Assembly: GCA_904420445.1 (NCBI GenBank)
Contig: CAJFVJ010000001.1
Location: forward strand, 10,973-74,972
DNA from: Candidatus Adamsella avium
GTDB taxonomy: Bacteria > Cyanobacteriota > Vampirovibrionia > Gastranaerophilales > CAJFVJ01
Direction of reading: 5' to 3'
Length of the DNA: 64,000 nucleotides
Shown here: piece by piece, positions 15,723 to 42,565 of the stretch
Layout: the number at the start of each line of letters is the position of its first letter
How positions within the stretch are numbered: position 1 is the stretch's first letter
The notes under the pieces: generated by a model
Database searches by the model: none
Told to the model about the DNA's origin: nothing
Seen by the model: only the letters and a program-made list of their open reading frames with translations
Translations under genes and position numbers: made by a program

Positions 15723-16382
15723 ATGAATATCACTTTTAACCCGCATACAACACCTGTTCTAAAACAATTGCAAACATCTCAACCAATTGAACCGCCGCTG
15801 AAATATAACAAAAATCTTGAGCATGACACTGTATCTTTCGGACAAAAAAAAGATAAAAATCCTAAAATTACGGCATCTCAAATAAAAGCAATATCAGAAA
15901 ATGCTACACCGGTAACATATATGAAACTGTTCAGAACAAAATCGGAAACAGGAGAAAATATTTTCTGGAGAATGACTCCAAAAGCCATAAAAGCAAGCGC
16001 AGACCTGCTCAAAAAAACAAAAAACGAGGATACACTCTCAAAAGCACTTTCTGCAAAAAATCCTGACGGGAAAAATATCCTGACAACAATCAAAACAGCT
16101 GACAAACTTGACGCACTGGTATATGCCCTCAAAGACGACCCCAAAACTCTTCTCGATATTCTCTCTTATCCAACACCAGAAGAAGCTACAGCAACACTCT
16201 TCAAAAATGCGCTGATAAAAGGAGAAAACGAGCACAAAATGCAAAAATCACTCAATAAGGCATGGTTCTCTGTCGCAAACGAAAATCCCGGAAAAAAAGA
16301 AGCTGTTATAACTCTCTTTAAAGCAAACGAAGAATATCTCAACAAGAAAAATAAAACTATTCTCGGAGATCTGACTCATTAA
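15723..16382 (+). CDS. hypothetical protein with a polar N-terminus and VSFG motif, no signal peptide
   Basis: 219-aa ORF with an AGAGGA RBS. N-terminus is MNITFNPHTTPVLKQLQTSQPIEPPLKYNKNLEHDTVSFGQKKDK. The rest is Lys-rich and looks helical. No Cys. Confidence 0.6.
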   Translation: MNITFNPHTTPVLKQLQTSQPIEPPLKYNKNLEHDTVSFGQKKDKNPKITASQIKAISENATPVTYMKLFRTKSETGENIFWRMTPKAIKASADLLKKTKNEDTLSKALSAKNPDGKNILTTIKTADKLDALVYALKDDPKTLLDILSYPTPEEATATLFKNALIKGENEHKMQKSLNKAWFSVANENPGKKEAVITLFKANEEYLNKKNKTILGDLTH

Positions 16383-17500: not shown

Positions 17501-18424
17501 ATGAAAATTAACCCGAATATAAACACAACAAACAGCAATATTATAACCAACTCAAAAACAAAAGAAGTTGCTGCTGAAACAACAACGCAAAATACTCCCA
17601 AAATTATTCAAACAACAAACAATATCGGGATGTATATATTATCAAAACTAGAAAATATTAACAAACTCGATAATATTCAAAAAATGCTGTTTCTCAAAGA
17701 AATGCTCAACCTTCCTGATGAATGGAAAGACCTCCTCATCTTCGCCGCTTTGAAATCATCTCCAAGCGCAAACTCTGAGCAGCTCCTTTCAAAACTCATA
17801 GATTTCAATTTGCTGAAAAAAGATATCAACCAAACATCAAACGAAATCCTCAACAAACTTCTCAAACTTCTCACACCGCAGATGGCTGCCAAGTCTTCAG
17901 AAATTCAACAAATGATGGAAATTCTCCAAAAATTTCTGCCTTCATCCGAAACAAAAACACCTGACTTTATCAAAGATTTGATGCTGATGTACCTGCCATA
18001 TCTGCCGTTGAAAGAAGATTTCAAACTGAGGTTCCAAAACAAAAACAACAACGATGATAACTCCGAAAACAACTCTGATGCTATCATAATAATCCTTACA
18101 ACAAAAAATATGGGAACCTTTAGAATAGAAATCTTTCTCGAAAACTCAACCCCTCATATCCAGATTGACAACAACTCTGACTCGCTCAACAAAAGATTTT
18201 TGACAGGGTTGAAAGAAATCAAACAAAAACTCGAAATAAAAAATGAAATAAGCATAATTAAAAACAAAAATATACAATCATCAAACGAACAATCACAGCA
18301 TATTATCTCCTCTTCAAAAAAAATCCATCCCCAAATATTAATCATAGCTTACGAAATCATAAAAATGATTCTCGAACTCGACAACAAGCTGTCTATAGTT
18401 AAATCAAGAGAGCTTAAAGACTAA
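17501..18424 (+). CDS. hypothetical N/K-rich protein with a FliK-C-terminal-like (Flg_hook-like) segment
   Basis: 307 aa. The segment AIIIILTTKNMGTFRIEIFLENSTPHIQIDNNSDSLNKRFLTGLKEIKQKL follows the L-x-P-x-x-LG-x-hxhxh pattern of hook-length-control C-domains. Lies upstream of the rod genes. Confidence 0.55.
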   Translation: MKINPNINTTNSNIITNSKTKEVAAETTTQNTPKIIQTTNNIGMYILSKLENINKLDNIQKMLFLKEMLNLPDEWKDLLIFAALKSSPSANSEQLLSKLIDFNLLKKDINQTSNEILNKLLKLLTPQMAAKSSEIQQMMEILQKFLPSSETKTPDFIKDLMLMYLPYLPLKEDFKLRFQNKNNNDDNSENNSDAIIIILTTKNMGTFRIEIFLENSTPHIQIDNNSDSLNKRFLTGLKEIKQKLEIKNEISIIKNKNIQSSNEQSQHIISSSKKIHPQILIIAYEIIKMILELDNKLSIVKSRELKD

Positions 18425-18545: not shown

Positions 18546-19238
18546 ATGAAAATATACGGCGGAATATATATGAAAGACGACGGTCTGAGCACAGCTGTAA
18601 GAGGAATGCACCTCCAGACAGAGTTTTTCAGAATAGGAAGCGATAACATAGCAGGCGCAAGCAAAGTTGGTTATCAGGGCAAAAAAGCCGTCTTATCCTC
18701 ATTTGCCGAATATCTTGGACCTTATGCACTCTCAGAGGTAAAAGACACCACTCCCGGAAGAATTCAGCAAACAGGAAACCCCCTTGACCTTGCCTGTGCA
18801 AACGAAACATATTTTCAATACCAGACCCCTGAAGGAATAAAGCTCACAAAAGACGGTCGTTTTCAACTTGACAAAGACGGCTGGCTAAGAACCATCGAAG
18901 GGCACAAAGTCCTCTCAAGAACCGGCAGCCCCATAAAATTCCAACATATACCGGACGACCTTAGAACCATAAAAGTTAACACCGACGGCGAAATCAGTAT
19001 ACTCAACAAACTCACAATGGAACAGGAACCGGTTGATACAATAGGTGTCGCCTCAGAAAACGGAGTCGCTGTAAGTACAGCAGACATCAAACAGGGTTAT
19101 GTCGAAAACTCTAACATTACTCTGCAGGAAGAATATCTCAAATTGCTTGCACCACGAAGGACTTTTCAGGCATGCAGACAGATGTTCATAATCCAAAACT
19201 CCGCACTCTCTCAGGTAGTCTCAAAACTCGGAAGCTGA
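18546..19238 (+). CDS. flagellar basal-body rod protein (FlgF/FlgG family)
   Basis: N-terminal rod motif (GLSTAVRGMHLQ...DNIAGASKVGYQ), TGNPLDLA motif, and C-terminal GYVENSNITLQEEYLKL. Confidence 0.8.
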   Translation: MKIYGGIYMKDDGLSTAVRGMHLQTEFFRIGSDNIAGASKVGYQGKKAVLSSFAEYLGPYALSEVKDTTPGRIQQTGNPLDLACANETYFQYQTPEGIKLTKDGRFQLDKDGWLRTIEGHKVLSRTGSPIKFQHIPDDLRTIKVNTDGEISILNKLTMEQEPVDTIGVASENGVAVSTADIKQGYVENSNITLQEEYLKLLAPRRTFQACRQMFIIQNSALSQVVSKLGS

Positions 19239-19256
19239 TTATAAGGAATAAAACAA

Positions 19257-19970
19257 ATGGATAACTTACAAGGACTTATATCAAAACAAGTAAATAATAT
19301 GCTCGTTCAGTTTGAAACATTGGGATATCTTTCAAATAACGTTTCAAATACCCAAACTACAGCCTACAAATCTCAACGTTTTGAAAACTACCTCAAAGAA
19401 GACGGTCGCCTTGAAGCAGTCTTAAGACACGACTATGTTCAGGGGACTATTATGCAAACAGGCAGAGACCTTGATGTGGCAATCAACGGCGCAGGTTTTA
19501 TTCCGGTAATCGACCAAAACGGACAAACTAAATATACCCGTGACGGTTCTTTTAGAGTTACCTCAGAAGGCACCATCGTCACAAGAGACAACTGTATTGT
19601 GGGAGGAGGAATCAATCTCCCCGCTGACTACAACAGACTCAAAATTCAACCGAACGGTAAAGTAATGATACAAAAAACAAAAACAAGCGAATTTGAAGAA
19701 ATAGGAGAAATCCCACTTGTTACGTTCAGAAACCCAGAAGGGTTAAAAGTTTTGGAGGGCAACAAAGTTGAAGAAACAAACGATTCAGGCAAACCTATTT
19801 ACCTGTCCGAGAACAAAAATTTCAAACAACATGCACTGGAATCATCCAATGTGGACATGTATGGAACAGTTCAGAACATTCTTCAGATTAATGCAAGTCT
19901 TATTGCCAGCAAGAATTTAACACAGGTCATCGACGACATGTACAAAGAAGTCATCAACCTTAGACAATAG
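19257..19970 (+). CDS. flgG: flagellar basal-body rod protein FlgG-like
   Basis: SNNVSNTQTTAYK, TGRDLDVAINGAGF, YTRDGSF and ALESSNVD motifs. Confidence 0.8.
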   Translation: MDNLQGLISKQVNNMLVQFETLGYLSNNVSNTQTTAYKSQRFENYLKEDGRLEAVLRHDYVQGTIMQTGRDLDVAINGAGFIPVIDQNGQTKYTRDGSFRVTSEGTIVTRDNCIVGGGINLPADYNRLKIQPNGKVMIQKTKTSEFEEIGEIPLVTFRNPEGLKVLEGNKVEETNDSGKPIYLSENKNFKQHALESSNVDMYGTVQNILQINASLIASKNLTQVIDDMYKEVINLRQ

Positions 19971-19986
19971 TAAAGTGAGGTAAAAA

Positions 19987-20334
19987 ATGGGATACACACC
20001 GGTAAACGCAATAGATAAAACAAATCTTATACTCGACGTCCTCGCAAAAAAACAGCAGGTAATAGGTGCAAACCTCGCAAACATTGATACCCCCGGATAT
20101 CAGCGTCAGGATATAAGTTTTGAACAATACATAGGTTCCCTCAACAGCCCGCTTGAAACAAATCTCTCAAAAAAAATGGGACCCTCGGCAATCATGACAA
20201 ACCAGGGGGGTGAAGTCAATCAGGCTCAAGAAATCGTGGATATGCAGCAGGTTTCACTCTATTACAGAATGGCTATAAGACAAATGTCCAGCAAAATCAC
20301 GGAAATAAAACAGGTTATTCAGGTAGGTAAATAA
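19987..20334 (+). CDS. flgB: flagellar rod protein FlgB
   Basis: 115 aa with the ANLANIDTPGYQRQD motif. Order is flgB-flgC-fliE. Confidence 0.85.
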   Translation: MGYTPVNAIDKTNLILDVLAKKQQVIGANLANIDTPGYQRQDISFEQYIGSLNSPLETNLSKKMGPSAIMTNQGGEVNQAQEIVDMQQVSLYYRMAIRQMSSKITEIKQVIQVGK

Positions 20335-20350
20335 CAGAAAGAAGTAGACT

Positions 20351-20794
20351 ATGGGTTTATTAGATGCAATAGAAATAGGCGCAGGCGCTCTGAATGCTCA
20401 CGGAAAAAGAATGGATGTCCACACCCAAAACATTGCAAATGTGGACACTCCGAATTATGTCAGAAAAATACCTCTTCTCATGGCAAGAGAAGACAACTCC
20501 TTCGAAGGTCTTATGAATAACATGAAAGAAAATGTCTTCGCAATCGGAACAATTCCCTATCTCTCAGGAGGAGTAAACTTTAATGGAGTAGTAGGCGACC
20601 CTCGCCCCGGAGAACTGATATACCAGCCCGGGCACCCTGACGCCGATAAAAACGGTTATATAAGAGCCTCCAATGTCAATCCTTTGACTGATATAGCAGA
20701 TGCAATGAGCGCATCAAGAGCCTATGAAGCAAACCTTGCACTCATAGCAATCACAAAAACAATGGCGCAAAGCGCACTTGATATCGGTAAATAA
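20351..20794 (+). CDS. flgC: flagellar rod protein FlgC
   Basis: HTQNIANVDTPNYVRK, GHPDADKNGYI and ASRAYEANL motifs. Confidence 0.9.
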   Translation: MGLLDAIEIGAGALNAHGKRMDVHTQNIANVDTPNYVRKIPLLMAREDNSFEGLMNNMKENVFAIGTIPYLSGGVNFNGVVGDPRPGELIYQPGHPDADKNGYIRASNVNPLTDIADAMSASRAYEANLALIAITKTMAQSALDIGK

Positions 20795-20822
20795 TACTCA
20801 ACACTAAACGGGGACGGGAAAG

Positions 20823-21440
20823 ATGTTTAGCCCTACACTTACAAAAATGATAAACTCTTCAGGCGCACAAGCAGCCATGCAACGCAGCGCCCAAATTGAG
20901 AATTTTATTACACTCCAGACAAAAAACATCCAAACTCTCGAACCTCCGAAACCGACTCAAACAAAAAGCTTCGAAGAATACCTCGAACTCGACCCTCCGC
21001 CTGTTTTCGGAATAGATACAATCAAAAACATCAAAAAAACATCAACAGACAAGAAAACTCTCCGAGCAGAAATCAACGACATAGTCAAAAAAGCAGCCGC
21101 CACCCATGGAGTTGATGAAAAACTTATCCTCGCTGTAATTAAACAAGAATCAGGTTTTAACCCGAAAGCCGTTTCTCACTGCGGAGCAGAAGGTCTTATG
21201 CAGCTTATGCCGGGAACTGCAAAAGGGCTTGGAGTCAAAGACTCCTTCGACCCCGTACAAAATGTCATGGGAGGCACAAAATACCTCAAAAATCTCCTGA
21301 AAAAATACAACGGGAACATAATCCTCGCTCTGGCAGCCTACAACGCAGGTTCAGGCAACGTAGCAAAATACAACGGAGTTCCACCCTTCAAAGAAACTCA
21401 GAACTACGTGAAAAAAGTTCTCGCAAATTACTTGAGCTAA
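20823..21440 (+). CDS. SLT-domain lytic transglycosylase encoded inside the flagellar rod operon
   Basis: VIKQESGFNP, GLMQLMPGTAKGLG and AAYNAGSGNVAKYNGVPPFKETQNYVKKV motifs. Paralogous to 3731-4417. Confidence 0.85.
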   Translation: MFSPTLTKMINSSGAQAAMQRSAQIENFITLQTKNIQTLEPPKPTQTKSFEEYLELDPPPVFGIDTIKNIKKTSTDKKTLRAEINDIVKKAAATHGVDEKLILAVIKQESGFNPKAVSHCGAEGLMQLMPGTAKGLGVKDSFDPVQNVMGGTKYLKNLLKKYNGNIILALAAYNAGSGNVAKYNGVPPFKETQNYVKKVLANYLS

Positions 21441-21460: not shown

Positions 21461-21790
21461 ATGCAAAACAAATTTACTCCCCTAATTGATGTAGTAAACA
21501 GCATCAGCGACGGAAAATTGAACACAAGCCTCAACCCGACACGCCTAAAACCCGTAAATCAGCCTGAAACAACAAGTTTCAGCGATGTAATGGGTAATAT
21601 GATTTCAGAACTCAACTCAACTGTAAATGCCCCGGATGAAGTTCTGCAAAACGCCATAACAGGCAATGGCGCTGATATTCACGATGTAATCATCGCTGTA
21701 TCAAAAGCAGAAATAGGAGTCAATATCGCAACCCAAATCACCGGAAAAGTAATACAATCATACGAAAAAATTATGTCAATTCAGGTATAA
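21461..21790 (+). CDS. fliE: flagellar hook-basal body protein FliE
   Basis: 109 aa with SFSDVMGNMI...HDVIIAVSKAEIGVNIATQI...YEKIMSIQV. Confidence 0.85.
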   Translation: MQNKFTPLIDVVNSISDGKLNTSLNPTRLKPVNQPETTSFSDVMGNMISELNSTVNAPDEVLQNAITGNGADIHDVIIAVSKAEIGVNIATQITGKVIQSYEKIMSIQV

Positions 21791-21846: not shown

Positions 21847-23502
21847 ATGGATTTTAACAAAATCTTGGAGAACAAGCCTTTGGTGGCCGCTGTTATAGGC
21901 GGTGCGGTAGCAATCGCACTGCTACTGTCAATTATTGCGCTCTTCAAACCGGCAGCAGCACCAACTCCGGGGGGAGGTAAAGTATCTTATGAAGCTAACA
22001 AAGTTATCAAAGAAGAACTTGAACTCCTCACTACCGATAACATAGGAAAAGCTATCGAACTGCAAGCACTTCTCGCCCGTGAAGGTATTCAGGCAAAAAG
22101 ACGTGCTGAAGGTCAAAAATCCACTCTCTATCTAGAAAAATATACTCAATCAGAAAGGGATCGTGCCCTCCTCGCTATCGTAAAAAGCGGTATTATGGAC
22201 GAACATATGGGGCTTGAAATCTTTGATAAAGGCGATTTTACCTCAACAAAACAGGACAAAAAAATCCGCCTCGCACGTGCAATCAACGGCGAGTTATCAC
22301 GCCTCATCAGAAAAATACCGCCTATCGAAAATGCTTCCGTTTTCATCGCAATCCCTGACAGCTCTCTGTTCACATCAAAACAATCTCCAATCACGGCAAC
22401 TGTTCAGGTAAGCATACCAAGCGGCACAACTCTCGAAAGAGATAAAGTCAGAGCCATCAAAAACCTTCTGATGGGCAGCATACCAAATCTCAGAATCGAA
22501 AATATCTCAATAACAGATACAAACGGCACTGTCTACAAAAGCATAGAATCAGCAGAAGATAACAGTATCACCATGACCGAAGAAAATGACCAGTATATGA
22601 AATCAAAAGTACAGGCTCAGTTAGATAAACTCATCGGTCCTGATAAATACGTCGTTACGGTCAGCACTTTCTTAAGACAGGTACCTGTTGAAAGAAGCAG
22701 TGTGACATATGACCCGCAAAATACTGCTGTTGCAACAGAACAACGCTTTAGCGAACAGCTCGGCGACCAGTCAAAAGACTCAAGCAAACTAAATCAGGCA
22801 GCAAGCGTCTATCTTCCTGCCGGTCTTCCTCAGGGTGCAAGCTCAGCAACAAACAGAAACTACGGAAGAGAAGCAAAAGAACTGCAATACAACGTATCTC
22901 AAACTCAAACAACAGAATACCAGAAACCCGGAATAATCGAAGATATCTCAATCGCTGTTACCATTGATCAGAATGCACTTCCGGCAAGCATAAGCACATC
23001 TGAACTCAAAGGACTTATCGCAAGAGCAGCAAGCCCGAAAGTAAATCCTGATAACGTAACAGTTGTCTTCTCGGAAGATATATCTCCGTTCCTGGCTTCA
23101 GAAAAACCCGTACAGCTTCCAAAACCTGAAAGCAGCGGCAATCCTTGGTGGACAGTAGCAGCGCTCCTCTGCATAGGTCTTCTTGCAGGTCTTTTCTTCA
23201 TCATGAAAAGAGCAAAATATGAAGCGCAAAAACATCAAAAAGAAATAGAAGCTCTCAAAAAATTCAATGAAGAACAATCAAGACAAATTCAAAACTTCAA
23301 CAACACAACAAACCAGCTTCTTGCACAGCAAACAGAACTCAAAAAAGCTCTGCTTGAGGAAACTCAAAAAATAAATCAAAACCAGCAAAAATCAATACCA
23401 AAACTAGATACATCTATTGATGAAGTAGCTCAAAAAACATCAGAATACGACGAGGAGGAAGTAGGAGAATATCTGAAATCCTGGATAGAATCAGCCAGCT
23501 AA
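21847..23502 (+). CDS. fliF: flagellar MS-ring protein FliF
   Basis: 551 aa with an N-terminal TM segment, a second TM near residue 440 (WWTVAALLCIGLLAGLFFI), and an acidic C-terminus (EYDEEEVGEYLKSWIE). Confidence 0.9.
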   Translation: MDFNKILENKPLVAAVIGGAVAIALLLSIIALFKPAAAPTPGGGKVSYEANKVIKEELELLTTDNIGKAIELQALLAREGIQAKRRAEGQKSTLYLEKYTQSERDRALLAIVKSGIMDEHMGLEIFDKGDFTSTKQDKKIRLARAINGELSRLIRKIPPIENASVFIAIPDSSLFTSKQSPITATVQVSIPSGTTLERDKVRAIKNLLMGSIPNLRIENISITDTNGTVYKSIESAEDNSITMTEENDQYMKSKVQAQLDKLIGPDKYVVTVSTFLRQVPVERSSVTYDPQNTAVATEQRFSEQLGDQSKDSSKLNQAASVYLPAGLPQGASSATNRNYGREAKELQYNVSQTQTTEYQKPGIIEDISIAVTIDQNALPASISTSELKGLIARAASPKVNPDNVTVVFSEDISPFLASEKPVQLPKPESSGNPWWTVAALLCIGLLAGLFFIMKRAKYEAQKHQKEIEALKKFNEEQSRQIQNFNNTTNQLLAQQTELKKALLEETQKINQNQQKSIPKLDTSIDEVAQKTSEYDEEEVGEYLKSWIESAS

Positions 23503-23518
23503 AAAACGGAGAAAAACA

Positions 23519-24082
23519 ATGACAGGGGAGGGTGTTAATCCTGAAATATTTGCAAAAGATATAACCACGCAAGCCTTAGAAGTCATACCAAAAGACCTAT
23601 CTGATAAGGATGCAAAATTTGTCATAGACAAAGTCTATCACTTCTGCAAAAAAACCTCTGAAGAACTCGAAGAACAAAACTTATCAAAAGACAAAAAAAT
23701 TTTCCTCACACAACTTGTAAGCGAATGGATTTTCCACAAATCAATTGACTTATGCCGGGCTCAAATAGACCCAATCTACAAAGAAAATATACTCGAGGCT
23801 GTTTCTTATCAGGTTCTTCATACATCAAAAGAAAACCTCGCAAATAACCTTCCTCTTGAAAAAAATCTCGCTCTGACAGAAGAAAAAGTCCAGAAAATCT
23901 ATATGGAAAAACTATGCTACCTCTTCAACTCCGGCAAAATAGACGAACTAACTTACACAAACGCCCTCAATCAGTCTAATATAGATAAAATGTCCAAAGA
24001 AATTAACCTCCAAAATCAAAATAACCCTGTGAAAAACTTTCAAAAAATAATTAAAACCGTTTTCGATATACTTAAAAAATAG
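23519..24082 (+). CDS. hypothetical flagellar-operon protein (paralog A of the fliG-slot pair)
   Basis: 187 aa, colinear with the first ~180 aa of the next ORF. Examples: NPEIFAKDITTQALEVIPKDLSDKDAKFVIDKVYHF vs NPEEFSKNLTSQVVGVIPQDLSEEDKKFVVNIVYKF, EWIFHKSIDL vs EWAFHKSVDL, ALNQSNIDKM vs ALSESNIDRM. Confidence 0.65.
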   Translation: MTGEGVNPEIFAKDITTQALEVIPKDLSDKDAKFVIDKVYHFCKKTSEELEEQNLSKDKKIFLTQLVSEWIFHKSIDLCRAQIDPIYKENILEAVSYQVLHTSKENLANNLPLEKNLALTEEKVQKIYMEKLCYLFNSGKIDELTYTNALNQSNIDKMSKEINLQNQNNPVKNFQKIIKTVFDILKK

Positions 24083-24092
24083 AGAGGATACC

Positions 24093-25052
24093 ATGCCAAT
24101 AGAAGGATTTAACCCTGAAGAATTTTCCAAAAACCTGACTTCACAAGTAGTCGGGGTAATCCCTCAAGACTTATCGGAAGAAGATAAAAAATTTGTAGTA
24201 AATATCGTCTACAAATTTCTTATCATGGCGGCAGGCGCACTCAACAAAGACGATAACTCACCTCTGAACGCCCAGCAGGCATCAACAATCACTCAATTTA
24301 TAGGCGAATGGGCATTCCACAAATCAGTCGACCTCTCCCGTGCCAAAATACCTCAACCACTCAGAGAACCCGTCCTGCAAGCCGTCGCATTCTCTGTATT
24401 CGACGAAGCAAAAAAAGTCATAATAAATAATGTAGACAGAGATGAAGCTATCACAAGAATCGAAGAACGTGTTAAAGCAGCCTACCAGAGCTCTCTGCAG
24501 GGTCTTGCAAAAGAAAACAAAATAGACAAGGACTCTCTTCAGCGGGCACTCTCAGAATCAAATATCGATAGAATGGCAGAAGAAGCAAAACAACATAACT
24601 CTGAAGAAAACCAGAAACCGGTAGAAATGCCTGACCAGCTTCTCAAACTGGCTGCAATCTCTCTTGTCCTCAAAAAAATGCCCCCCAAACAAGTAGAAGT
24701 TATTCTCTCAAAAATTGATCCCCGTGATGCTACGGCAATCAACTCATATATGAAACTTGACGGACTTGAAACAAAACTTGATATGCAAAAAGCTCAAAAA
24801 TTTATAAACGAATTTATGCATAAAATGCCCAAAGAACCTCAAAAAATAAATGAAGATATAACTATATCCAAAATTAATAAACTAAAAACCTCACTTCCTC
24901 AGGGAACTCTCGAAAATATTCTGAAAAATGAGCGGGAAAATATCAAAAAAATTCTTGAAGACGAAGAAACACTCAAAGACCTCTCGCCCAAAATAATGAA
25001 TATATTGTATAATTATCTTGAGGAAAAGGCGGTTGGGTACACCAAAAGATGA
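24093..25052 (+). CDS. fliG-slot protein: paralog-B N-domain plus a FliG_N-like C-terminal module (not a full-length FliG)
   Basis: 319 aa. Residues ~185-250 (LLKLAAISLVLKKMPPKQVEVILSKIDPRDATAINSYM...KFINEFM) follow the FliG N-domain pattern KAAxLLxxLG..xxxVxxxLxxxE...EF. I see no FliG_C torque-helix region. Confidence 0.6.
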   Translation: MPIEGFNPEEFSKNLTSQVVGVIPQDLSEEDKKFVVNIVYKFLIMAAGALNKDDNSPLNAQQASTITQFIGEWAFHKSVDLSRAKIPQPLREPVLQAVAFSVFDEAKKVIINNVDRDEAITRIEERVKAAYQSSLQGLAKENKIDKDSLQRALSESNIDRMAEEAKQHNSEENQKPVEMPDQLLKLAAISLVLKKMPPKQVEVILSKIDPRDATAINSYMKLDGLETKLDMQKAQKFINEFMHKMPKEPQKINEDITISKINKLKTSLPQGTLENILKNERENIKKILEDEETLKDLSPKIMNILYNYLEEKAVGYTKR

Positions 25053-25771
25053 TAATCAAAAAAAACAAACTACAGCACAATTCACCTCAAAAAGAAGAGT
25101 CTGCAAAAGAACAACCCGTTGAAGAAATTGTTCAAGAACAAACTCCGAAAAAAAACCTGCTCGAATCAGGAATATTCTCTGATGAAGAATTCCTTGACAC
25201 CTTTCAGCAGAGGCAGGAAAGAAGACGCGGCGACAGACGCCGAGGCTACAGAAGAACAGACGATAGAAATATCATATCAAGAGCCAAAGACGAAGCCGAA
25301 AATATTAAACAACAGGCAATCAAAGACGGCTTTGCAAAAGGGCTCAATATGGCAAAAGCAAACATAGACGAACTCAAAAAAACAATTGCATCTCTGCTTG
25401 CCGTCAAAGAAAAAGCTATCGACAACTACAAAGATGACATAATAGAAATCTCCGTCAAAATAGCTGAAAAACTATTGAAAAAACAAATTGAAGAAGACGA
25501 CACCGTTATATTAAATATCTTATCGGAAGTTATCTCTGATATAGCTAAAGACGAAAAACACATTATAATAAAAATAAACCCGTCTGATGAAAAAACCGTA
25601 AAAGACAATATCGCTTCGCTTATCCCGTCTTCTTTTTCGGATACAAAAGTTACTCTTGAAAAAAATCCCAAAATCGACCGTGGAAGCTGCATAGTCGAGA
25701 CAAAAAGCGGGGTAATAGACGCCCAGTTCTCAACACAGCTGGCTATACTCAAAAAAGCACTCAACACTTAA
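25049..25771 (+). CDS. fliH: flagellar export ATPase regulator FliH
   Basis: 240 aa. A basic/acidic N-terminus, then AKDEAENIKQQAIKDGFAKG...IIEISVKIAEKLL...DRGSCIVETKSGVIDAQFSTQL. 4-nt overlap with the previous gene. Confidence 0.8.
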   Translation: MIIKKNKLQHNSPQKEESAKEQPVEEIVQEQTPKKNLLESGIFSDEEFLDTFQQRQERRRGDRRRGYRRTDDRNIISRAKDEAENIKQQAIKDGFAKGLNMAKANIDELKKTIASLLAVKEKAIDNYKDDIIEISVKIAEKLLKKQIEEDDTVILNILSEVISDIAKDEKHIIIKINPSDEKTVKDNIASLIPSSFSDTKVTLEKNPKIDRGSCIVETKSGVIDAQFSTQLAILKKALNT

Positions 25772-25799: not shown

Positions 25800-27896
25800 T
25801 TGGCACAACAAGGACAAATGCCTGCAATACCTGTCAGTGAAATATTCTTAGCAATATTTGTAGTTTGCCTTGTCTTGATTTTGCTCGTTGAGATGCCAAA
25901 CTGGGTCATCGACGCATCAATCAGTTTGAATATTACCCTCGGCATCGTCCTGTTGATGATATCCTTGTTCGTACAAAAACCTCTCGAGCTTGCTTCATTC
26001 CCTTCAATTATTCTGCTTGGAACAATGTTTAGACTTGTTTTGAGTATCGCATCAACAAGACTTATCCTCGCAAAAGGCGAAGCAGGCGAAGCAATCGAAG
26101 CATTCGGACACTTCGTAACAGGCGGAAATATGATTGTCGGCGGTGTTATCTTCCTCATCATCACAATCGTTCAGTTTATGGTTATCACAAAAGGTTCTGA
26201 ACGTATCGCCGAAGTTTCAGCAAGATTTGCCCTCGACGCCATGCCAGGTAAACAAATGGTTATCGACGCAGACTTTAACGCAGGACTTATCTCTCCTGAA
26301 GAAGCCGTAAGACGAAGAGAAAGCCTCCAAAGAGAATCAGCTCTCTTCGGTTCCATGGATGGTGCCATGAAGTTCGTAAAAGGAGATACCATAGCGGGTA
26401 TTATCATCGTAATCATCAACATCGTAGGCGGTCTTGCCATCGGGATGGGGATGAACGGACTCCCCCTTGAGGAAGCCGTATCAAAATATACAATCCTAAC
26501 AATAGGTGACGGTCTTGCCTCACAGCTCCCTTCACTGCTGATGGCGGTATCAAGCGGTATCGTTATGACCCGTGCAACAGCAGACAGCACCAGCTTGGGT
26601 AAAGACCTTGCAGGACAACTCATGAGCAAACCGTTCGGTCTGTTCTATGCTTCTGCATTCCTTTTGCTAATTGTCTTAACAAGCCCGATAACAGGTCTGC
26701 CGGGATGGTTCTTCGCTCTGTTTACAATCATAACAGCTCTTGCAGGCTTCTCCGTTCTCGTATCACAGGACGTTCAACAACAACTCGGACACCTCGAGAG
26801 TGTTAAACAAAACATGCAGGATATGGTCAACCCTAACAGAATGTATGAAAGACTCGGAGTTGATATCCTCAGCCTGCAGGTAGGAAGCGGGCTGTTAAGC
26901 ATCGCTGACCCTGAACAGGAAGGCGACCTCCTCGCAAAAATTGCCGCTCTAAGACAAAGAGTAACGGATGAACTCGGTTATATCATCCCGAACATAAGAA
27001 TTATGGACAGTACAGCCCTCGACCCGAACGAATATCTTATAGCTATCAGAGGCAACAACGTCGCAACAGGAAAGGTTTATCCGGGTAAATTGATGGTAAT
27101 AGCAGACCAGTGGCGTGCTTCAAGAGTACCTATTCCGCCATCCGCTGTCGAAAGTCTTGACCCGACATATCAGGCTCAGGCAATCTGGGTTTTGCCGAAA
27201 GAAATTCCGCCGTCAAAAGGAATTAACGGTGTCACTGCAACGGATGTAATCATCACACACCTGCAAGAGTGCTGCCGTAAGTATGTAGATGAAGTAATGA
27301 CAAAAACAGATGTCCTCAAACTTATGGAACTCGTTAAGAGCCAAGACCCGACTCTTGTCAACGACCTCGTTCCCGCTATCATCTCTACAAGCGATTTGAG
27401 AAAAATCTTCGTCAACCTCATCAGAGAAAAAGTTTCTATCAAAGATATCATCTTCATATTCGAAAGACTCTGCGACTACGCAAGATTTTCAAAAGAACCG
27501 GATATCCTCTCGGAAAGACTCCGTGCCGCACTCGGACGTCAAATATGTTTATCAAACTGCGAAGGCAAAACGCTCTATGCACTCACTCTTACTTCAGAGT
27601 GGGAGAAAACTCTCGACGACTCTTGCCAGAGAACAGAACTCGGAACTATGTTCCTTCTCAACCCGATGCAGGTTCAGGAACTCATCGAAGTTACTGCCTC
27701 AACCCTCATGAGAGCACACCATGTCATCGGAAGACAGCCTGTTATATTATGTTCTCCGAGAATTCGTCTTCCGCTTTATCAGCTGCTTGAAAGACATATT
27801 CCGACCATCGTCGTTATATCTTACAGCGAGCTGATTACTGATATAAGAGTCGAAGCAATTGATACAATCGGTCAAAACAGCGGGATAGGAGTGTAA
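25800..27896 (+). CDS. flhA: flagellar export gate protein FlhA
   Basis: 698 aa with a TTG start after GGAGG. FHIPEP motifs present: MPGKQMVIDAD, FGSMDGAMKFVKGD. Multiple TM segments plus a C-terminal cytoplasmic domain. Confidence 0.95.
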   Translation: MAQQGQMPAIPVSEIFLAIFVVCLVLILLVEMPNWVIDASISLNITLGIVLLMISLFVQKPLELASFPSIILLGTMFRLVLSIASTRLILAKGEAGEAIEAFGHFVTGGNMIVGGVIFLIITIVQFMVITKGSERIAEVSARFALDAMPGKQMVIDADFNAGLISPEEAVRRRESLQRESALFGSMDGAMKFVKGDTIAGIIIVIINIVGGLAIGMGMNGLPLEEAVSKYTILTIGDGLASQLPSLLMAVSSGIVMTRATADSTSLGKDLAGQLMSKPFGLFYASAFLLLIVLTSPITGLPGWFFALFTIITALAGFSVLVSQDVQQQLGHLESVKQNMQDMVNPNRMYERLGVDILSLQVGSGLLSIADPEQEGDLLAKIAALRQRVTDELGYIIPNIRIMDSTALDPNEYLIAIRGNNVATGKVYPGKLMVIADQWRASRVPIPPSAVESLDPTYQAQAIWVLPKEIPPSKGINGVTATDVIITHLQECCRKYVDEVMTKTDVLKLMELVKSQDPTLVNDLVPAIISTSDLRKIFVNLIREKVSIKDIIFIFERLCDYARFSKEPDILSERLRAALGRQICLSNCEGKTLYALTLTSEWEKTLDDSCQRTELGTMFLLNPMQVQELIEVTASTLMRAHHVIGRQPVILCSPRIRLPLYQLLERHIPTIVVISYSELITDIRVEAIDTIGQNSGIGV

Positions 27897-27903
27897 GTGC
27901 CAC

Positions 27904-29238
27904 ATGAGCAAAAGCGTCGAAGAAATTAAAAAACGTGCACTTGAAATAATTGATAAAACTCCCCTTTATATCTATAAAGGGAGCGTATCAAAAGTTCTCG
28001 GACTTACGGTAGAAGTCAAACTCCCCGGGCTTAAAATCGGTGACCTGTGCTATATAGAAACAGCAAGTGGCGATAAAAAAGCAGCCGAAGTAGTTGCATT
28101 CAAAGGAGATGTCGCACAGCTCCTGTTGTTGTACGACGGTGCAGGCATCGGACAGGGAAATCTTGTCACCTCAACAGGAAAATCCATTTACATCCCTGTA
28201 GGGGACTTTCTCTTAGGTCGTCTTATAAACCCTCTCGGCGCACCTATCGACGGAAAAAAATTGGATACGACAACAGCAAAATGGGTGCCCATAGAAGGGC
28301 CTCCCCCTGACCCGTTTGAAAGACCGATTATCAGCGAAAAATTTTCAACAGGGGTAAGAGCAATCGATGCCCTGCTGACATTTGGCTGCGGACAACGTAT
28401 GGGGCTTTTTGCAGGAAGCGGCGTCGGTAAAAGTACACTGCTCGGGATGATAGCAAGAAACTCTGATGCTGATGTAAACGTTATGGCTCTGATAGGAGAA
28501 CGTGGAAGAGAAGTTAAAGAATTTGTCGAAAACAGCCTGGGACCACAGGGTATGGCAAAATCAGTCATCGTCTGTGCAACAGGCGACCAGCCTCCGCTTA
28601 TCAGAATGAAGGCGCTTCAGTCTGCGACAGCTGTCTGCGAATACTTTAGAGATCAAGGGAAAAAAGTGTTCCTCATGACGGATACCGTCACAAGATGCGC
28701 AATTGCGGGAAGAGAGGTAGGCTTATCAATCGGAGAACCTCCAACCATGAAAGGTTATCCGCCGTCTATTTTCTCATGGCTTCAAAGAGTGCTTGAAAGA
28801 ACAGGTACAAGCCAAAAGGGGTCTATTACCGCATTTTATACGGTATTGATGGAAGGCGATGACATAAACGACCCCGTTGTTGATACGGTAAGAGGTATCG
28901 TAGACGGGCACGTGTTCTTATCAAGAAAAGTCGCCGAGCAGAACCATTACCCAGCCATAGATGTTCTCGGTAGCATAAGCAGGTTATTCACTGAAATCTG
29001 CGACGCCGAACATCAAAAGGCAGCTGCAAAGATGCGAACGCTTCTTGCTTTATATCGAGAAAACAAAGACCTGATTGATGTAGGGATGTATCAGGCAGGT
29101 GCAAACCCGAAACTTGATATAGCAATCGAACTTATGCCTCAAATAAACGGTTTCTTGTGTCAATCCGTCAAAGACAGTGTCAATATGAAAAATACAATAG
29201 ACACCCTGAAGCAAATGATGGCGAATGTCGATATCTGA
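27904..29238 (+). CDS. fliI: flagellum-specific ATPase FliI
   Basis: 444 aa with Walker A GSGVGKST and Walker B VFLMTDTVTR, F1-ATPase-like. Confidence 0.95.
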   Translation: MSKSVEEIKKRALEIIDKTPLYIYKGSVSKVLGLTVEVKLPGLKIGDLCYIETASGDKKAAEVVAFKGDVAQLLLLYDGAGIGQGNLVTSTGKSIYIPVGDFLLGRLINPLGAPIDGKKLDTTTAKWVPIEGPPPDPFERPIISEKFSTGVRAIDALLTFGCGQRMGLFAGSGVGKSTLLGMIARNSDADVNVMALIGERGREVKEFVENSLGPQGMAKSVIVCATGDQPPLIRMKALQSATAVCEYFRDQGKKVFLMTDTVTRCAIAGREVGLSIGEPPTMKGYPPSIFSWLQRVLERTGTSQKGSITAFYTVLMEGDDINDPVVDTVRGIVDGHVFLSRKVAEQNHYPAIDVLGSISRLFTEICDAEHQKAAAKMRTLLALYRENKDLIDVGMYQAGANPKLDIAIELMPQINGFLCQSVKDSVNMKNTIDTLKQMMANVDI

Positions 29239-38355: not shown

Positions 38356-39747
38356 TTATCTTCCAAGCTGTACAATTCGCTGAAGAACCTGGTTTACCGT
38401 ATCGAATGTACGGCTGTTTGCTTCAATGCTTCTTTGAGCAATAATCATTTCTGCAAATTGTGTTGATAAATCAACGTTTGATGATTCCAAACCGGCATTG
38501 CCTACCGTACCAAGACCATTCGAACCGCCGCAGGAGAAAGACAGTTCGCCTGCATTCAGACCGACTTCATACAAGTTGCCACCGACAGAAGTCAAACCCT
38601 GCTCATTGATAACAGTAGCAAGCTGCAATTGAAGGTTGCCCGCTTCTATTACATTTTCATTTACTTGAATTTTATTTGCGGCAATATCTACACCTTCTGC
38701 TGTTTTATAAAGCAAAGAAATTGTTGTCCCGTCATTTTGTACGGTCAAACTATCACCGTTTGAATATTTTGCAACTATAGACCCATCACCGTTTACACTC
38801 ATTGAAACAAATGTCGATGGAGAATCTGTTTCTGTTCCTGGGCCGACTGTTGCATTATAATCAAGAATATTACTTGTATATGTAACATTGGCGTCACCTT
38901 CTCCCATTTGAGTAGAAAGTCCTATTTCAGAAAAGAAGTCACTTCCTTCGCCGCCTTCTACAGAACCCATAGAGTCAATAGACACAGGAGTTGAAGCAGC
39001 TGTTGTATCAACAACCATCTGAATTGTTCCGGCATTCTCACCTGTTCCAAAGACCATCTGAACACCCTTATCGCCTAAAGCTCCTTCTAAAGCGGTATTT
39101 ATTTTGTTTGCTATATCATTCAAAGAAGAAGCGCCCGAGATATCAACTTCTACATTCTTAACTCCGTTATCACCGCAGTTTACTGAAATTGCGACTTTAC
39201 CTTCTTTATAGTTAAAATTATTCAAAGAATTGATATCCATGCCTGCTATATTTTCATTACCGGTGGTAAACATATTCAATGTAGGAGGAATTTTGATAGG
39301 AGTAGTGCTTGGATTTTTGCTGAAAGGAGAAGACATCCCGAGAACTCTGAAACCTTCCTGTGTGACAAGGCATCCTTCAGCATCTCTTGTAAAATCACCG
39401 GCTCTTGAAAGCATTACCTGATTGTTTTCATCCAAGACAGTAAAAAATCCGTTACCTTCAAAATAAAGGTTTGTATCAATACCTGTTGACTGGAAAGTAC
39501 CATCGCTGAAGTTTCTTGTAATCGATGCGAGTTTTGTACCGAAACCTACCTGCATCGGGTTTGTTCCGCCTATATTTTCAAGCGGGGAACTTCCGTTTGA
39601 AATTGTTCTTGAAAACACATTCTGAAAAGTTACATTTGACTGTTTAAATGCAACCGTATTCATATTTGCGATGTTGTCAGCTATAACATTAATTTTGTCC
39701 TGCGCTGTGTTCATTCCGCTTATGGATGTGTAAAACCCCTGTGTCAT
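38356..39747 (-). CDS. flgE: flagellar hook protein FlgE
   Basis: 463 aa with an N-terminal SGMNTAQDKINVIADNIANMNTVAFK and a C-terminal GLESSNVDLSTQFAEMIIAQRSIEANSR. Confidence 0.92.
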   Translation of the reverse strand: MTQGFYTSISGMNTAQDKINVIADNIANMNTVAFKQSNVTFQNVFSRTISNGSSPLENIGGTNPMQVGFGTKLASITRNFSDGTFQSTGIDTNLYFEGNGFFTVLDENNQVMLSRAGDFTRDAEGCLVTQEGFRVLGMSSPFSKNPSTTPIKIPPTLNMFTTGNENIAGMDINSLNNFNYKEGKVAISVNCGDNGVKNVEVDISGASSLNDIANKINTALEGALGDKGVQMVFGTGENAGTIQMVVDTTAASTPVSIDSMGSVEGGEGSDFFSEIGLSTQMGEGDANVTYTSNILDYNATVGPGTETDSPSTFVSMSVNGDGSIVAKYSNGDSLTVQNDGTTISLLYKTAEGVDIAANKIQVNENVIEAGNLQLQLATVINEQGLTSVGGNLYEVGLNAGELSFSCGGSNGLGTVGNAGLESSNVDLSTQFAEMIIAQRSIEANSRTFDTVNQVLQRIVQLGR

Positions 39748-39824
39748 ATAATTTTTTCCTCCTGCTATATTTTTATTGACTGATTAAATTTTCCTTATTT
39801 ATATTATTCTTTTGAAATTTTTCT

Positions 39825-40352
39825 CTAAACTTTTTCTGTATTTTCCTTATTATCTGCATCAGCTACAGACTCTGTGCCGTCACCGCCGGCAGAATTATCA
39901 GTTCCTGTATCTGCCCCGGGTTCTTTGATAGATTCTATCAATCCAAGCGGATAATTTTTACCGTTAATAGTAATACCTGCTTCCTGTCCTGTATAGATAG
40001 CTCCTTCAACTATACCCGTAATTCTCTGTGATGTATTATTAGGGTCAATCAGTGTAACTTCTTTGCCAATCAAAGAACTTGCCTGAAGCAGTGAATTTGA
40101 TGCAGTCAGCGTTTCATTCAGTTTCTGAAGCTCGGTAACCTGTGTAAACTGTGCCTGTTGAGCAATAAACTCCTGATTATCAGTAGGATTCATCGGATCC
40201 TGATTCTGCAGCTGTACCATCAAAAGCTGCAAAAAAGCATTCTGGTCAAGCTCGGTGCGCCCGACATTATTTTTCGCATTCTCGGCATTAACCTTTGCCG
40301 TGTTGTTTTTAATATTTGTCAGTGTATTTTCTATACTTGATGATGACTGCAT
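39825..40352 (-). CDS. flgD: flagellar hook capping/assembly protein FlgD
   Basis: LDQNAFLQLLMVQLQNQDPMNP motif. Confidence 0.88.
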   Translation of the reverse strand: MQSSSSIENTLTNIKNNTAKVNAENAKNNVGRTELDQNAFLQLLMVQLQNQDPMNPTDNQEFIAQQAQFTQVTELQKLNETLTASNSLLQASSLIGKEVTLIDPNNTSQRITGIVEGAIYTGQEAGITINGKNYPLGLIESIKEPGADTGTDNSAGGDGTESVADADNKENTEKV

Positions 40353-40376
40353 TTTAACGCTCCCCGTTTTTATCTT

Positions 40377-41966
40377 CTAAATTGTATAATCTACCAGTCC
40401 GTTGTGAACACTCTTTGTTGATTTTGTGTCATGGTGTTCTTCCTGCAGCAAATCATGTTCATAATTTGACTGCGCTTCATGTTCAGAGTTTCTGCTCTGG
40501 GATCCTGTTTTATTGTTATCGCCAAAGTCAAACCCCTGCATATTTTCATGCGGAAAATCTTTTGAAAAATTGTTATTCGACAGAGTTGATTCCTGTGATT
40601 TTACAATCACATTGCCCACTGTTATTCCCTGCTCCTGCAAAGATTGTTTCAAAGAATCAATATTTCTTGTCAAAAGTTCTTTTGTCTGGTCATTTTCAGT
40701 TCTTATCTCAGCAGACAAAATTCCGTTTTGCGACACAAGGTCTATGTTCAATCTGCCAAGGCTCTGAGGATTCAAAATCATTGATATTGAATTTTTGCCG
40801 TTGATTGATGTCATGTTGTGTTTCATGTTGTTTACAACCTGATTGAGGACATCAACATCGGCATTATGCTGTTGTTCCATCGAACTCAAAAGTCTGTTAA
40901 ATTCCGTATTGTGCACCCCGTCTGATTTTGCTGCGGAGCTGCTGTTTGAGAAAAGCGAATTCAGCGAATTAAGAGGGGAGTCCATCCCTTCATGCGACTC
41001 ATTATGTTGATTCATGAAAGAACTCTCGCCGTTGTTCGAAGCATCAATCTCTTTGACCGAAGCTCTTGCCGCTAGTTCACCCAGCTGACCTTTCAAAGAT
41101 TTTGATGTATCCTGTTTGGAAGTTTTTACATCTTCAACATTCAAATCAGCAAAAGTTTCAGCTAACTCATCAGCAGGAGTTTTCAGAAGTTCATTTTTCT
41201 GTAAAGCTGCTTCTTTTACCGGTTGGACTTCTGTCTGCTCCTGTTTTGTTTGTTTTGCGATATTTTGCATTTCCGCTTGCTTTTGAGTTTTATCAGAAAT
41301 ACTCTTGACCAGATTTTCAAGTTTTTCTTTCAACGAATTTACGCTGTCTGTTTTTTGAGTTCTGCCATGCAGCTCGCTTAATCTGTTTGATAAATCTGTT
41401 TGAAGCTGTGATTTATCCACGACTTTTTTTTGAGAAACGTCTGTTTGAACATCAGCCTGCTCAAGAATTTTTTGAAGTTTTGATTTTTGTTTTACGGCAT
41501 CAGAGTGAGAAAGGTGTTTATCACCGAGAATTTGCGAGATATCTTTTGAGGAGTAAGCAAGCTGCTCTACTCTATCTCTAAAGTTTATATGTTCGGATGC
41601 CGGAGATACAACATCTCTTGAAGATTGTCTTCTGATGTCATGGTGATGTTCTTTAGAAAAAATTTCACGTCTGTCAGTAAATTTGCTTCTGTCTTTTTCT
41701 TTTGTTGTATTAAGCTCATCTGATTTTTCAGTTATATCATTCTTTGTATTGCCGCCGTCAAAAGACTCATCTTTATAAACATAATCATTTGATGAAGAAG
41801 AGTTTGTTTTGGGTTCATAGTTCACCTGTTGTGTCAGAACGCTTGAGAACTGATTTGTAATATTTTCATAATCATCATAGCTGAAATTCTTTGATGAATT
41901 ATCTTCTTGAGAGCTGAATGCTTTAAAGCTTAAATCTAAAATATTGCTTTCGCTTAATACGCTCAT
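40377..41966 (-). CDS. fliK: flagellar hook-length control protein FliK
   Basis: 529 aa with a polar, disordered-looking N-terminal region. The C-terminal Flg_hook pattern is ISMILNPQSLGRLNIDLVSQNGILSAEIRTENDQTKELL. Confidence 0.8.
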   Translation of the reverse strand: MSVLSESNILDLSFKAFSSQEDNSSKNFSYDDYENITNQFSSVLTQQVNYEPKTNSSSSNDYVYKDESFDGGNTKNDITEKSDELNTTKEKDRSKFTDRREIFSKEHHHDIRRQSSRDVVSPASEHINFRDRVEQLAYSSKDISQILGDKHLSHSDAVKQKSKLQKILEQADVQTDVSQKKVVDKSQLQTDLSNRLSELHGRTQKTDSVNSLKEKLENLVKSISDKTQKQAEMQNIAKQTKQEQTEVQPVKEAALQKNELLKTPADELAETFADLNVEDVKTSKQDTSKSLKGQLGELAARASVKEIDASNNGESSFMNQHNESHEGMDSPLNSLNSLFSNSSSAAKSDGVHNTEFNRLLSSMEQQHNADVDVLNQVVNNMKHNMTSINGKNSISMILNPQSLGRLNIDLVSQNGILSAEIRTENDQTKELLTRNIDSLKQSLQEQGITVGNVIVKSQESTLSNNNFSKDFPHENMQGFDFGDNNKTGSQSRNSEHEAQSNYEHDLLQEEHHDTKSTKSVHNGLVDYTI

Positions 41967-42419
41967 CTAAACCCCCGATCCTCTATACCTTGTAAGTGCT
42001 ATATCGTCCAATTCCTTTGCTTCTCTTTGCTCAAAATCTTTCAAAAAAGCCTTATATTCCTTTTCTTTCAATTTTTCAAGCATTTTTTTTGCCTTGAGAG
42101 CCTCTCTGACTTCCTCCTGCTTCAGCTCAAGCTCATTTTCTATATCGGCAATCACTTTATGCTGGATAGATATATCATCATCAAGTTTTGCTATATAATC
42201 CTGATAGTTCTTAACCCTGATAAATTCTATATTTTCTCCTGCACCAAGTATATTTTCCAAATCTCTTTTTGCTTGCAACCTGCTTTGCTCCAAAGAATCA
42301 AGCTTGTTGTTCGCATCATTCAATCTGGCCTGGATAGCAGCCATCTCAAGCTGCCTGTCTTCAAGAGTTTTTGTTCTGAGTTCCAAAACGTTTTCTAATC
42401 GAAATTTAAACTTTTTCAC
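41967..42419 (-). CDS. fliJ: flagellar export protein FliJ
   Basis: 150-aa coiled coil, MKKFKFRLENVLELR...KMLEKLKEKEYKAFLKDFEQREAKELDDIA. Abuts fliK. Confidence 0.75.
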   Translation of the reverse strand: MKKFKFRLENVLELRTKTLEDRQLEMAAIQARLNDANNKLDSLEQSRLQAKRDLENILGAGENIEFIRVKNYQDYIAKLDDDISIQHKVIADIENELELKQEEVREALKAKKMLEKLKEKEYKAFLKDFEQREAKELDDIALTRYRGSGV

Positions 42420-42565
42420 CCATAAAACCTCTTGCCCAAGGACATCAAATATCTCTTCGATGTCTATATAAAGATTACACCATGGAACAGGAGGTATTCA
42501 TCCTCTAAACATACTATTATTCATGCAAAAAGCATGGCAGAGAGAGTTTTTCGGATTTTGAGAGA

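Follow-up and report, generated by a model that had tools for sequence, protein, structure and literature searches.

Here we describe a gene that occupies the position of fliG in a flagellar-type operon of Candidatus Adamsella avium (Gastranaerophilales), contained in a 64-kb stretch of contig CAJFVJ010000001.1 (hereafter the window). Between fliF, which encodes the MS-ring protein, and fliH lie two open reading frames (ORFs), ORF-A of 187 amino acids (aa) and ORF-B of 319 aa, and of these it is ORF-B, not ORF-A, that fills the fliG slot across the order. ORF-B joins an N-terminal helical domain, which we term X, to a C-terminal domain that appears to belong to the FliG superfamily. What is new here is an unannotated order-wide family, a putative MS-ring adaptor of the FliG superfamily carrying a new domain, that seems to mark a fliG-less flagellar-type locus. 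Our favoured reading, to which we give an even chance, is that ORF-B is a FliF-docked adaptor replacing FliG in a divergent flagellar-type system of the Vampirovibrionia/Gastranaerophilales.

The initial annotation of this region gave the gene order as fliE-fliF-[187 aa]-[319 aa]-fliH-flhA-fliI; the ORF coordinates proved exact and Pfam confirmed the identity of the neighbours. ORF-A and residues 1-169 of ORF-B share 38% identity over 169 aa (BLASTP, E=6e-38), and by this alignment the two are paralogous over their N-terminal ~170 aa, far beyond chance. Each ORF is preceded by its own Shine-Dalgarno sequence, and the start of fliH overlaps the stop of ORF-B. Both ORFs are under purifying selection, with ratios of non-synonymous to synonymous substitution rates (dN/dS) of 0.058 for ORF-A and 0.096 for ORF-B, beside 0.028 for fliF and 0.044 for fliH, when measured against L001, a relative of the window locus at 95% identity. 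Given the Shine-Dalgarno sequences, the overlap with fliH and the low dN/dS, ORF-A and ORF-B look like real, expressed genes. Neither ORF has a match above the curated Pfam or NCBIfam cut-offs, and the idea of a complete, merely divergent FliG with an intact C-domain is not borne out.

For a comparison of gene order we retrieved 80 Gastranaerophilales species loci together with 10 kb of flanking sequence on either side. The order fliF-ORF-B-fliH was found in all 80, usually with flhA next, and the same arrangement is kept in the most divergent full-length members of the family. The fliG slot had been described as held by tandem paralogues, which is correct for the window; the pair is not the general state, as a single ORF-B homologue fills the slot in 78/80 of the related loci. 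The ORF-B family comprises 76 clusters at 90% identity (311-354 aa), none of which carries a name from any source, and an exhaustive profile search returned 518 representatives at 50% identity. Relatives were found in at least 579 species-representative genomes, labelled nearly all as Gastranaerophilales, Melainabacteria, Vampirovibrio or 'Cyanobacteria bacterium'. Several metagenome-assembled genomes titled 'uncultured Gammaproteobacteria bacterium' (L029, L039, L044, L054, L063 and L073) also contain a Gastranaerophilales-type locus at 35-38% identity, and are probably mislabelled. A public 90%-identity cluster of ORF-B (P0002, P0055, P0466) additionally contains FliH sequences (240 aa, 246 contigs), the two being bridged by frameshifted or chimeric ORF-B-FliH assemblies such as P0002; the 240-aa P0466, considered as a variant or truncation of ORF-B, is FliH and reflects this clustering artefact.

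ORF-A is far more restricted. Among the 80 loci it is present only in L001, and it is closer to P0219 (190 aa, X only, 49% identity) than to any other homologue, the neighbouring ORF-B included; P0219 sits between fliF and a 319-aa ORF-B in the fully syntenic locus L096 of another lineage. We considered ORF-A as a decaying recent duplicate, which is ruled out by its dN/dS of 0.058 and by the P0219 ortholog in the same slot. By these comparisons ORF-A is an accessory paralogue specific to one clade, yet predicted to be functional.

The initial annotation had proposed that only the second ORF carries a FliG_N-like module, and profile alignment, family-wide Pfam scans and structure search all agree with this, each at sub-threshold level. 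An AlphaFold2 model of ORF-B, built from a 53-sequence alignment (predicted local distance difference test, pLDDT, 85.7), shows two domains at residues 8-170 and 181-318 joined by a disordered linker (171-176); the C-domain modelled separately reached a pLDDT of 83. Our FliG profile was made from 11 sequences of six phyla, namely E. coli, Vibrio, Thermotoga and Helicobacter FliG from PDB alignments and seven plasmid- or chromid-borne FliGs. With hhalign, the C-domain matched FliG_N in the register first proposed (P=1.4e-4, Prob 52%, 63 columns, ORF-B residues 190-256 to FliG residues 11-73). It matched FliG_M at P=6e-4 and FliG_C at P=0.035, the latter at control level, and reversed-sequence controls gave P>=0.18. 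As a calibration, genuine FliG domains were aligned with one another (FliG_N with FliG_M, 8e-7; FliG_M with FliG_C, 1.3e-3; FliG_N with FliG_C, 0.03), and the score of the C-domain against FliG_N falls inside this range. The remaining tail (residues 256-319), said at first to loosely resemble the first armadillo (ARM) repeat of FliG_M, gave a weaker signal, specific to FliG_M (P=0.002, controls >=0.065), in which the invariant E280-R281 of ORF-B aligns to the E-H of the EHPQR motif at only P=0.002.

Moreover, when the 53 family members were scanned singly against Pfam, 29 matched MgtE_N (best E=1.7e-4), seven matched FliG_M and four matched FliG_N, three families that form one Pfam clan, whilst no unrelated family was matched by more than 8 of the 53. 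MgtE_N (PF03448), the Pfam family matched by most members, is likewise a superhelix of short helices of ~100-130 aa. However, ORF-B has neither the CBS nor the membrane domain of MgtE and its context is entirely flagellar; canonical FliGs also receive MgtE_N matches, so that such a match marks the clan and not an MgtE function. A Foldseek search with the whole ORF-B model returned generic helical bundles only (E>0.2), and the C-domain was therefore searched alone against 350,000 chains. Some 10 of its 26 matches were FliG chains (best E about 2.6, none with E<1), the best local fit being 5tdy_D, the Thermotoga maritima FliG_N co-folded with FliF_C (TMt 0.46). Taken together, this converging sub-threshold evidence suggests that the C-terminal domain of ORF-B is a member of the FliG/MgtE_N superfamily, closest to the N-terminal part of FliG.

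By the same comparisons ORF-B does not qualify as FliG proper. Its gene lies directly 3′ of fliF and 5′ of fliH, to which it is coupled, as fliG does, and the product is of similar length (311-354 aa across the family, against about 330 aa). However, FliG (PF14842, PF14841, PF01706) has its domains in the order N-M-C with the FliF-binding domain first, whereas the FliG-like part of ORF-B is residues 177-319 and more than half of the protein, residues 1-173, is an unrelated bundle of long helices, with a tandem X-only paralogue in one clade. As the initial annotation had stated, there is no FliG_C or torque domain by hhalign, and no sequence is left over to hold one. An EHP[QE] motif occurs in 0/53 ORF-B members against 8/10 reference FliGs. 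On its own, ORF-B scores below threshold with Pfam FliG_C (E=0.17; 12.6 bits, the cut-off being 23.3) and MgtE_N (E=0.25, residues 188-246). No precomputed Pfam domain is recorded for any of the 76 ORF-B clusters, compared with FliG_N, FliG_M and FliG_C in 120/120 of the canonical FliGs listed, all from Enterobacterales. An alignment of the ORF-B family to E. coli FliG gave no hhalign signal, a single sequence being too weak a test; the search of PDB sequences with the same alignment, which listed no FliG, was likewise of too little power.

The possibility that ORF-B is nonetheless a true FliG, extremely diverged and with its domains rearranged, such that X is a remodelled FliG_M/FliG_C generating torque against a MotAB-type stator, is in our view improbable. 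It would account for the shared slot, the similar length and the FliG-superfamily domain, as well as for the invariant charged residues of X (E72, H76, K77, D80 and E124), and Vampirovibrio chlorellavorus lists a second motB-motA pair (PMC4451040 Table S3). Against this, the domain order is reversed, the X model is a bundle of five helices of ~24 residues rather than an ARM or torque-helix fold, and X resembles neither FliG_M nor FliG_C (hhalign P>=0.1) nor FliG chains (Foldseek rank 26, E=1.4). X is also found alone, in tandem and fused to other domains in non-flagellar contexts, which would be unusual for a torque domain, and stator genes are lacking in and near all of the loci examined.

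In canonical motors FliG_N clasps the C-terminal helix of FliF, as in the FliG_N:FliF_C complexes of PDB entries 5TDY and 5WUJ. All 79 FliF C-termini available from the related loci (79/79) end in a motif (L/V)(K/Q/R)(S/N/K/T)WI(E/D), nearly always in the form (L/V)K(S/N)WIE, which aligns with the end of E. coli FliF (...VIRQWINNDHE). That this tail is strictly conserved in a system with no recognisable FliG points to the persistence of a FliG_N-type receptor, for which the C-domain of ORF-B is the obvious candidate. Gene position and the conserved FliF motif thus suggest that ORF-B is tethered to FliF. The neighbouring FliH differs from its canonical counterpart as well. Canonical FliH is docked to FliN by an N-terminal Trp motif; here the FliH N-terminus is basic and conserved (MIIKK/R...) and the Trp motif is absent in 76/79 relatives. 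Several lineages carry an arginine-rich segment, ERRRGDRRRG[YF]RR, ahead of the FliH domain.

The domain shared by the two ORFs could not be assigned when it was first noticed, and it has since remained without relatives: X has no Pfam, NCBIfam or PDB-sequence match and no significant Foldseek match, and with hhalign it scores no better than controls against FliG_N, FliG_M and FliG_C (P>=0.1). The AlphaFold2 model gives it five long helices of 15-25 residues and two short ones. Its invariant residues are M1, I3, F6, P24, A63, T67, Q68, I70, E72, W73, F75, H76, K77, D80, Q96, A99, E124 and V127; the most conserved block is T67-Q-F-I-G-E-W-x-F-H-K-x-x-D80, and the N-terminus M-x-I-x-G-F is invariant. 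Among 226 X-containing sequences we found X with the C-domain, as in ORF-B, in 132, X with a long tail in 49 and X only in 39, together with a few tandem copies and one protein with TPR repeats followed by X.

The long tail is mostly the cytoplasmic domain of FlhA (FlhA_C; Pfam FHIPEP, profile positions ~250-656) without the membrane part. These fused domains are 41-58% identical to the C-terminal domain of the genuine FlhA of the window and only ~28% identical to a soluble FlhA_C paralogue that is also encoded there. The fusion genes lie outside flagellar contexts, and the low-GC contigs that carry them have Gastranaerophilales as the best match of their other genes. The operon order, ORF-B followed by fliH and then by flhA with its membrane region ahead of its C-domain, means that a deletion from after X to after the membrane region of FlhA would yield exactly such a fusion. 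In the Rosetta-stone sense, we take the fusion to hint that X normally works beside the FlhA_C ring. The X-FlhA_C proteins, of 500-700 aa, include P0132, P0142 and P0135 (at L083 626-2407, L084 1610-3694 and L097 1501-3204, respectively), and such fusions are widespread and conserved as stand-alone genes. Other architectures, including X-X-FlhA_C and TPR-X (P0088, P0134, P0171, P0210), do not occur near flagellar genes, and the 737-aa P0146 (L099 8001-10214) consists of three tandem X copies and a tail, close to rpsP and to a histidine kinase/response regulator/T2SSE group.

The same fusions would also suit a different account, in which ORF-A and ORF-B are no structural parts of the basal body but use X to bind FlhA_C and act as soluble export chaperones or regulators, the FliG-like repeat being a generic helical scaffold unrelated to FliF binding. 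Chaperones of flagellar export are small bundles of helices and dock on FlhA_C, X proteins do occur outside flagellar loci, and every similarity to FliG is sub-threshold. We nevertheless hold this account to be highly improbable: no FliS-, FliT- or FlgN-like structure was found among the Foldseek matches, the FliF tail motif and the adjacency of fliF and ORF-B are both strict, and the FliG-clan signals converge from three independent methods.

A complete Pfam inventory of the window, supplemented with E. coli probes, revealed no FliG, FliM, FliN, MotA or MotB domain, nor are there motor genes in the 10 kb further upstream. The 10-kb flanks of the 80 loci likewise contain no rotor or stator genes by E. 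coli probes and by Pfam searches of conserved neighbours, and only housekeeping genes were seen there; as a control, E. coli FliF and FliH probes detected their targets in 77 and 65 of the 80 loci.

A precedent for such a locus can be found in V. chlorellavorus (PMC4451040 Table S3). This organism has a canonical set of flagellar genes, comprising flgB-flgC-fliE-fliF-fliG-fliH-fliI, fliN-fliM-fliL-motB-motA and L/P-ring, junction and cap genes. A further set without fliG is listed in addition, made up of flgF-flgG-flgB-x-flgC-x-fliE-fliF, fliH-flhA, fliJ-fliK-flgD-flgE and spoA-fliO-P-Q-R, and the gene order of the window is exactly that of this second set. We refer to flgF-flgG-flgB-flgC-SLT-fliE-fliF-[ORF-B]-fliH-flhA-fliI plus [FlhA_C paralogue]-fliJ-fliK-flgD-flgE as set B, and to the canonical genes as set A. 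The FliF of the window, used to look for canonical Melainabacterial fliF-fliG operons, listed at least 120 near-identical set-B FliFs. In ACD20 the gene between fliF (G0021) and fliH (G0023) was left unnamed (Di Rienzi 2013). Gastranaerophilales have been reported to possess mostly partial sets of flagellar genes (Di Rienzi 2013, Soo 2014, Utami 2018), and a 2026 preprint scores ~25% of gut genomes as flagellar-'complete' by KEGG, the others keeping flhB, fliI, flgG and similar genes. The supplementary tables of the three earlier studies give no per-genome FliG presence for set-B genomes, and in the literature we found no paper describing the ORF-B family or the second flagellar system as such.

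These data bear on a further explanation, that ORF-B is an accessory to a canonical FliG encoded elsewhere, sharing the FliF helix or competing for it, for example as a factor in assembly, as a brake or clutch, or in the control of rotor occupancy, in an ordinary rotating flagellum. Competition for FliF_C is a role for which a FliG_N-like domain would be well equipped. MEL_B1, MEL_B2 and ACD20 were reported with complete flagellar sets, FliM trees include Melainabacteria, the quarter of gut genomes scored as complete by KEGG would fit, and the motile V. chlorellavorus does have a canonical fliG; moreover, our searches covered the window and the locus flanks rather than whole genomes. However, the canonical fliG of V. 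chlorellavorus adjoins its own set-A fliF and not the set-B fliF, and no FliG was found within 10 kb of the 80 loci, although E. coli FliF and FliH probes do find their targets there. ORF-B also lies in the exact fliG slot with fliG-like translational coupling to fliH, and it is kept in at least 579 species, yet most Gastranaerophilales are described as having no functional flagellum. We therefore regard an accessory role as fairly unlikely.

Under the favoured reading, the C-terminal ~140 aa of ORF-B would fold into an ARM domain of the FliG_N type and grip the conserved helix at the C-terminus of FliF (...LKSWIE), from which we propose that one ORF-B sits under each FliF subunit. On the cytoplasmic face, X would then stand in for FliG_M/FliG_C and the switch complex, and would contact the export apparatus, that is the FlhA_C ring and/or FliH-FliI, rather than a MotAB stator. 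Lacking both the torque-helix domain and the EHPQR motif that binds FliM, ORF-B could not act as a rotor by the known mechanism. ORF-A, with X and no docking domain, probably co-assembles with the X of ORF-B or competes for the partners of X in one subclade. Physical contact with FliF_C, the identity of X's partners, the stoichiometry and the lack of rotation are all inferences. A tentative extension, which we rate rather below an even chance, is that set B encodes a second hook-basal-body organelle that is rotor-less and non-swimming, with an MS ring, rod, hook and complete export apparatus, serving for example in secretion or surface display.

Several observations weigh against ORF-B as a FliF-docked replacement for FliG. 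Canonical fliG, fliM, fliN or motAB elsewhere in the genome may serve the same basal body. Every similarity to FliG is below curated or conventional thresholds (the best Pfam value for the window protein being E=0.17), a family-profile search found no FliG among PDB sequences, and for residues 177-255 the affinities to FliG_N and FliG_M are not separable (P about 2e-4 for each). In ORF-B the FliG-like domain comes last, the reverse of the order in FliG. The X-FlhA_C fusion could simply reflect an operon deletion, and the occurrence of X proteins in non-flagellar contexts means that X may be a general interaction module. Lastly, the ORF-B family is known from sequences and models alone.

A useful analogy for the proposed adaptor is SctK (OrgA/YscK/MxiK), an all-helical cytoplasmic adaptor of ~200 aa that, in a non-rotating type III machine devoid of FliG, links the membrane ring to the SctQ/SctL/SctN platform. 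The likeness is functional only and lies in the bridging of ring and ATPase platform, the role proposed for ORF-B; no sequence or fold similarity to SctK was seen among the PDB-sequence or Foldseek matches. SctK also binds SctD and not a FliF-type C-terminal helix, whereas the ORF-B system keeps flagellar rod and hook genes. [quoted passage not shown] They differ in that the ORF-B system has a new and strongly conserved family in the position of a core rotor gene, which argues for a remodelled machine and not for simple decay.

FliG is regarded as a core component of all bacterial flagellar motors. An entire order in which the fliG slot holds a protein bearing only the docking module would amount to a natural experiment on how the cytoplasmic face of the basal body can be rewired. 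The 'incomplete' flagellar sets of most gut Melainabacteria, reported since 2013-2014, may encode a distinct and conserved machine whose defining subunit has gone unannotated, and a rotor-less organelle, if real, would explain purifying selection on 'partial' flagellar sets in hundreds of gut species. X itself would constitute a new domain family with at least 518 representatives at 50% identity, for which the recurrent fusion to FlhA_C supplies a partner hypothesis. Given that Gastranaerophilales are widespread commensals of the human and animal gut, the function of this system is relevant to host-microbe biology.

Table 1. Flagellar-type genes and protein features of the 64-kb window, in window coordinates.
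Feature	Position	Strand	Remarks
flgF	18546-19238	+	Pfam LlgE_F_G_D1 and Flg_bbr_C matches; upstream part of operon
flgG	19257-19970	+	Pfam LlgE_F_G_D1 and Flg_bbr_C matches; upstream part of operon
flgB	19987-20334	+	Upstream part of operon (18546-21440)
flgC	20351-20794	+	Upstream part of operon (18546-21440)
Stand-alone SLT lytic transglycosylase	20823-21440	+	Pfam SLT E=1.3e-34; between flgC and fliE
fliE	21461-21790	+	Pfam FliE E=1.2e-17
fliF, MS-ring protein, 551 aa	21847-23502	+	Pfam YscJ_FliF 5e-33, YscJ_FliF_C 1e-13
FliF C-terminal motif L543-K-S-W-I-E548	23473-23490	+	Presumed ligand of the FliG-like domain
ORF-A, 187 aa, X domain only	23519-24082	+	Homologous to ORF-B residues 1-169
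ORF-B, 319 aa, X domain + linker + FliG-superfamily domain	24093-25052	+	fliG slot
X domain of ORF-B, residues 1-173	24093-24611	+	Alignment and AlphaFold2 model
ORF-B residues 177-319, putative FliG/MgtE_N-superfamily domain of ten short helices	24621-25049	+	
ORF-B core matching FliG_N, residues 190-256	24660-24860	+	hhalign
fliH	25049-25771	+	Pfam FliH 6e-21; start overlaps ORF-B stop (ATGA)
flhA	25800-27896	+	Pfam FHIPEP 4e-211
fliI	27904-29238	+	Pfam ATP-synt_ab and T3SS_ATPase_C
Second cluster of the same system	38356-44047	-	[FlhA_C-only paralogue]-fliJ-fliK-flgD-flgE, Pfam
Soluble FlhA_C-only paralogue, 493 aa	42566-44047	-	FHIPEP profile positions 321-655, no membrane region
fliJ	41967-42419	-	Pfam
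fliK	40377-41966	-	Pfam
flgD	39825-40352	-	Pfam
flgE	38356-39747	-	Pfam

The order flgF-flgG-flgB-flgC-SLT of the upstream part is also seen in relatives (Table 1), and the position of the SLT gene between flgC and fliE is kept in ~55 related loci. This gene presumably performs the peptidoglycan clearing of the enzymatic domain of FlgJ, and it has no recognisable FlgJ rod-cap domain. Directly 5′ of flgF are two ORFs with no Pfam match, at 17501-18424 (+, 307 aa) and 15723-16382 (+, 219 aa). Genes of comparable size, also unannotated, are found at this place in L096 (309 aa) and L095 (342 aa), and the two ORFs of the window may be further unrecognised parts of the system. Downstream, minC-minD-minE replaces flhA 3′ of fliH in three species (L011, L044 and L058), so that flhA must lie elsewhere in those genomes.

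The soluble FlhA_C paralogue of the second cluster is 28% identical to the genuine FlhA of the window over residues 136-488 (BLASTP). Its N-terminal ~135 aa are unrelated to the X domain, and when the protein was tried as a third copy of X the hhalign comparison was negative. The 'second flhA' of ACD20 in Di Rienzi 2013 is probably of this type. Elsewhere in the window, a 731-aa protein is encoded at 51695-53890 (-), in which a single EF-hand motif at residues 202-225 is the sole recognisable feature.

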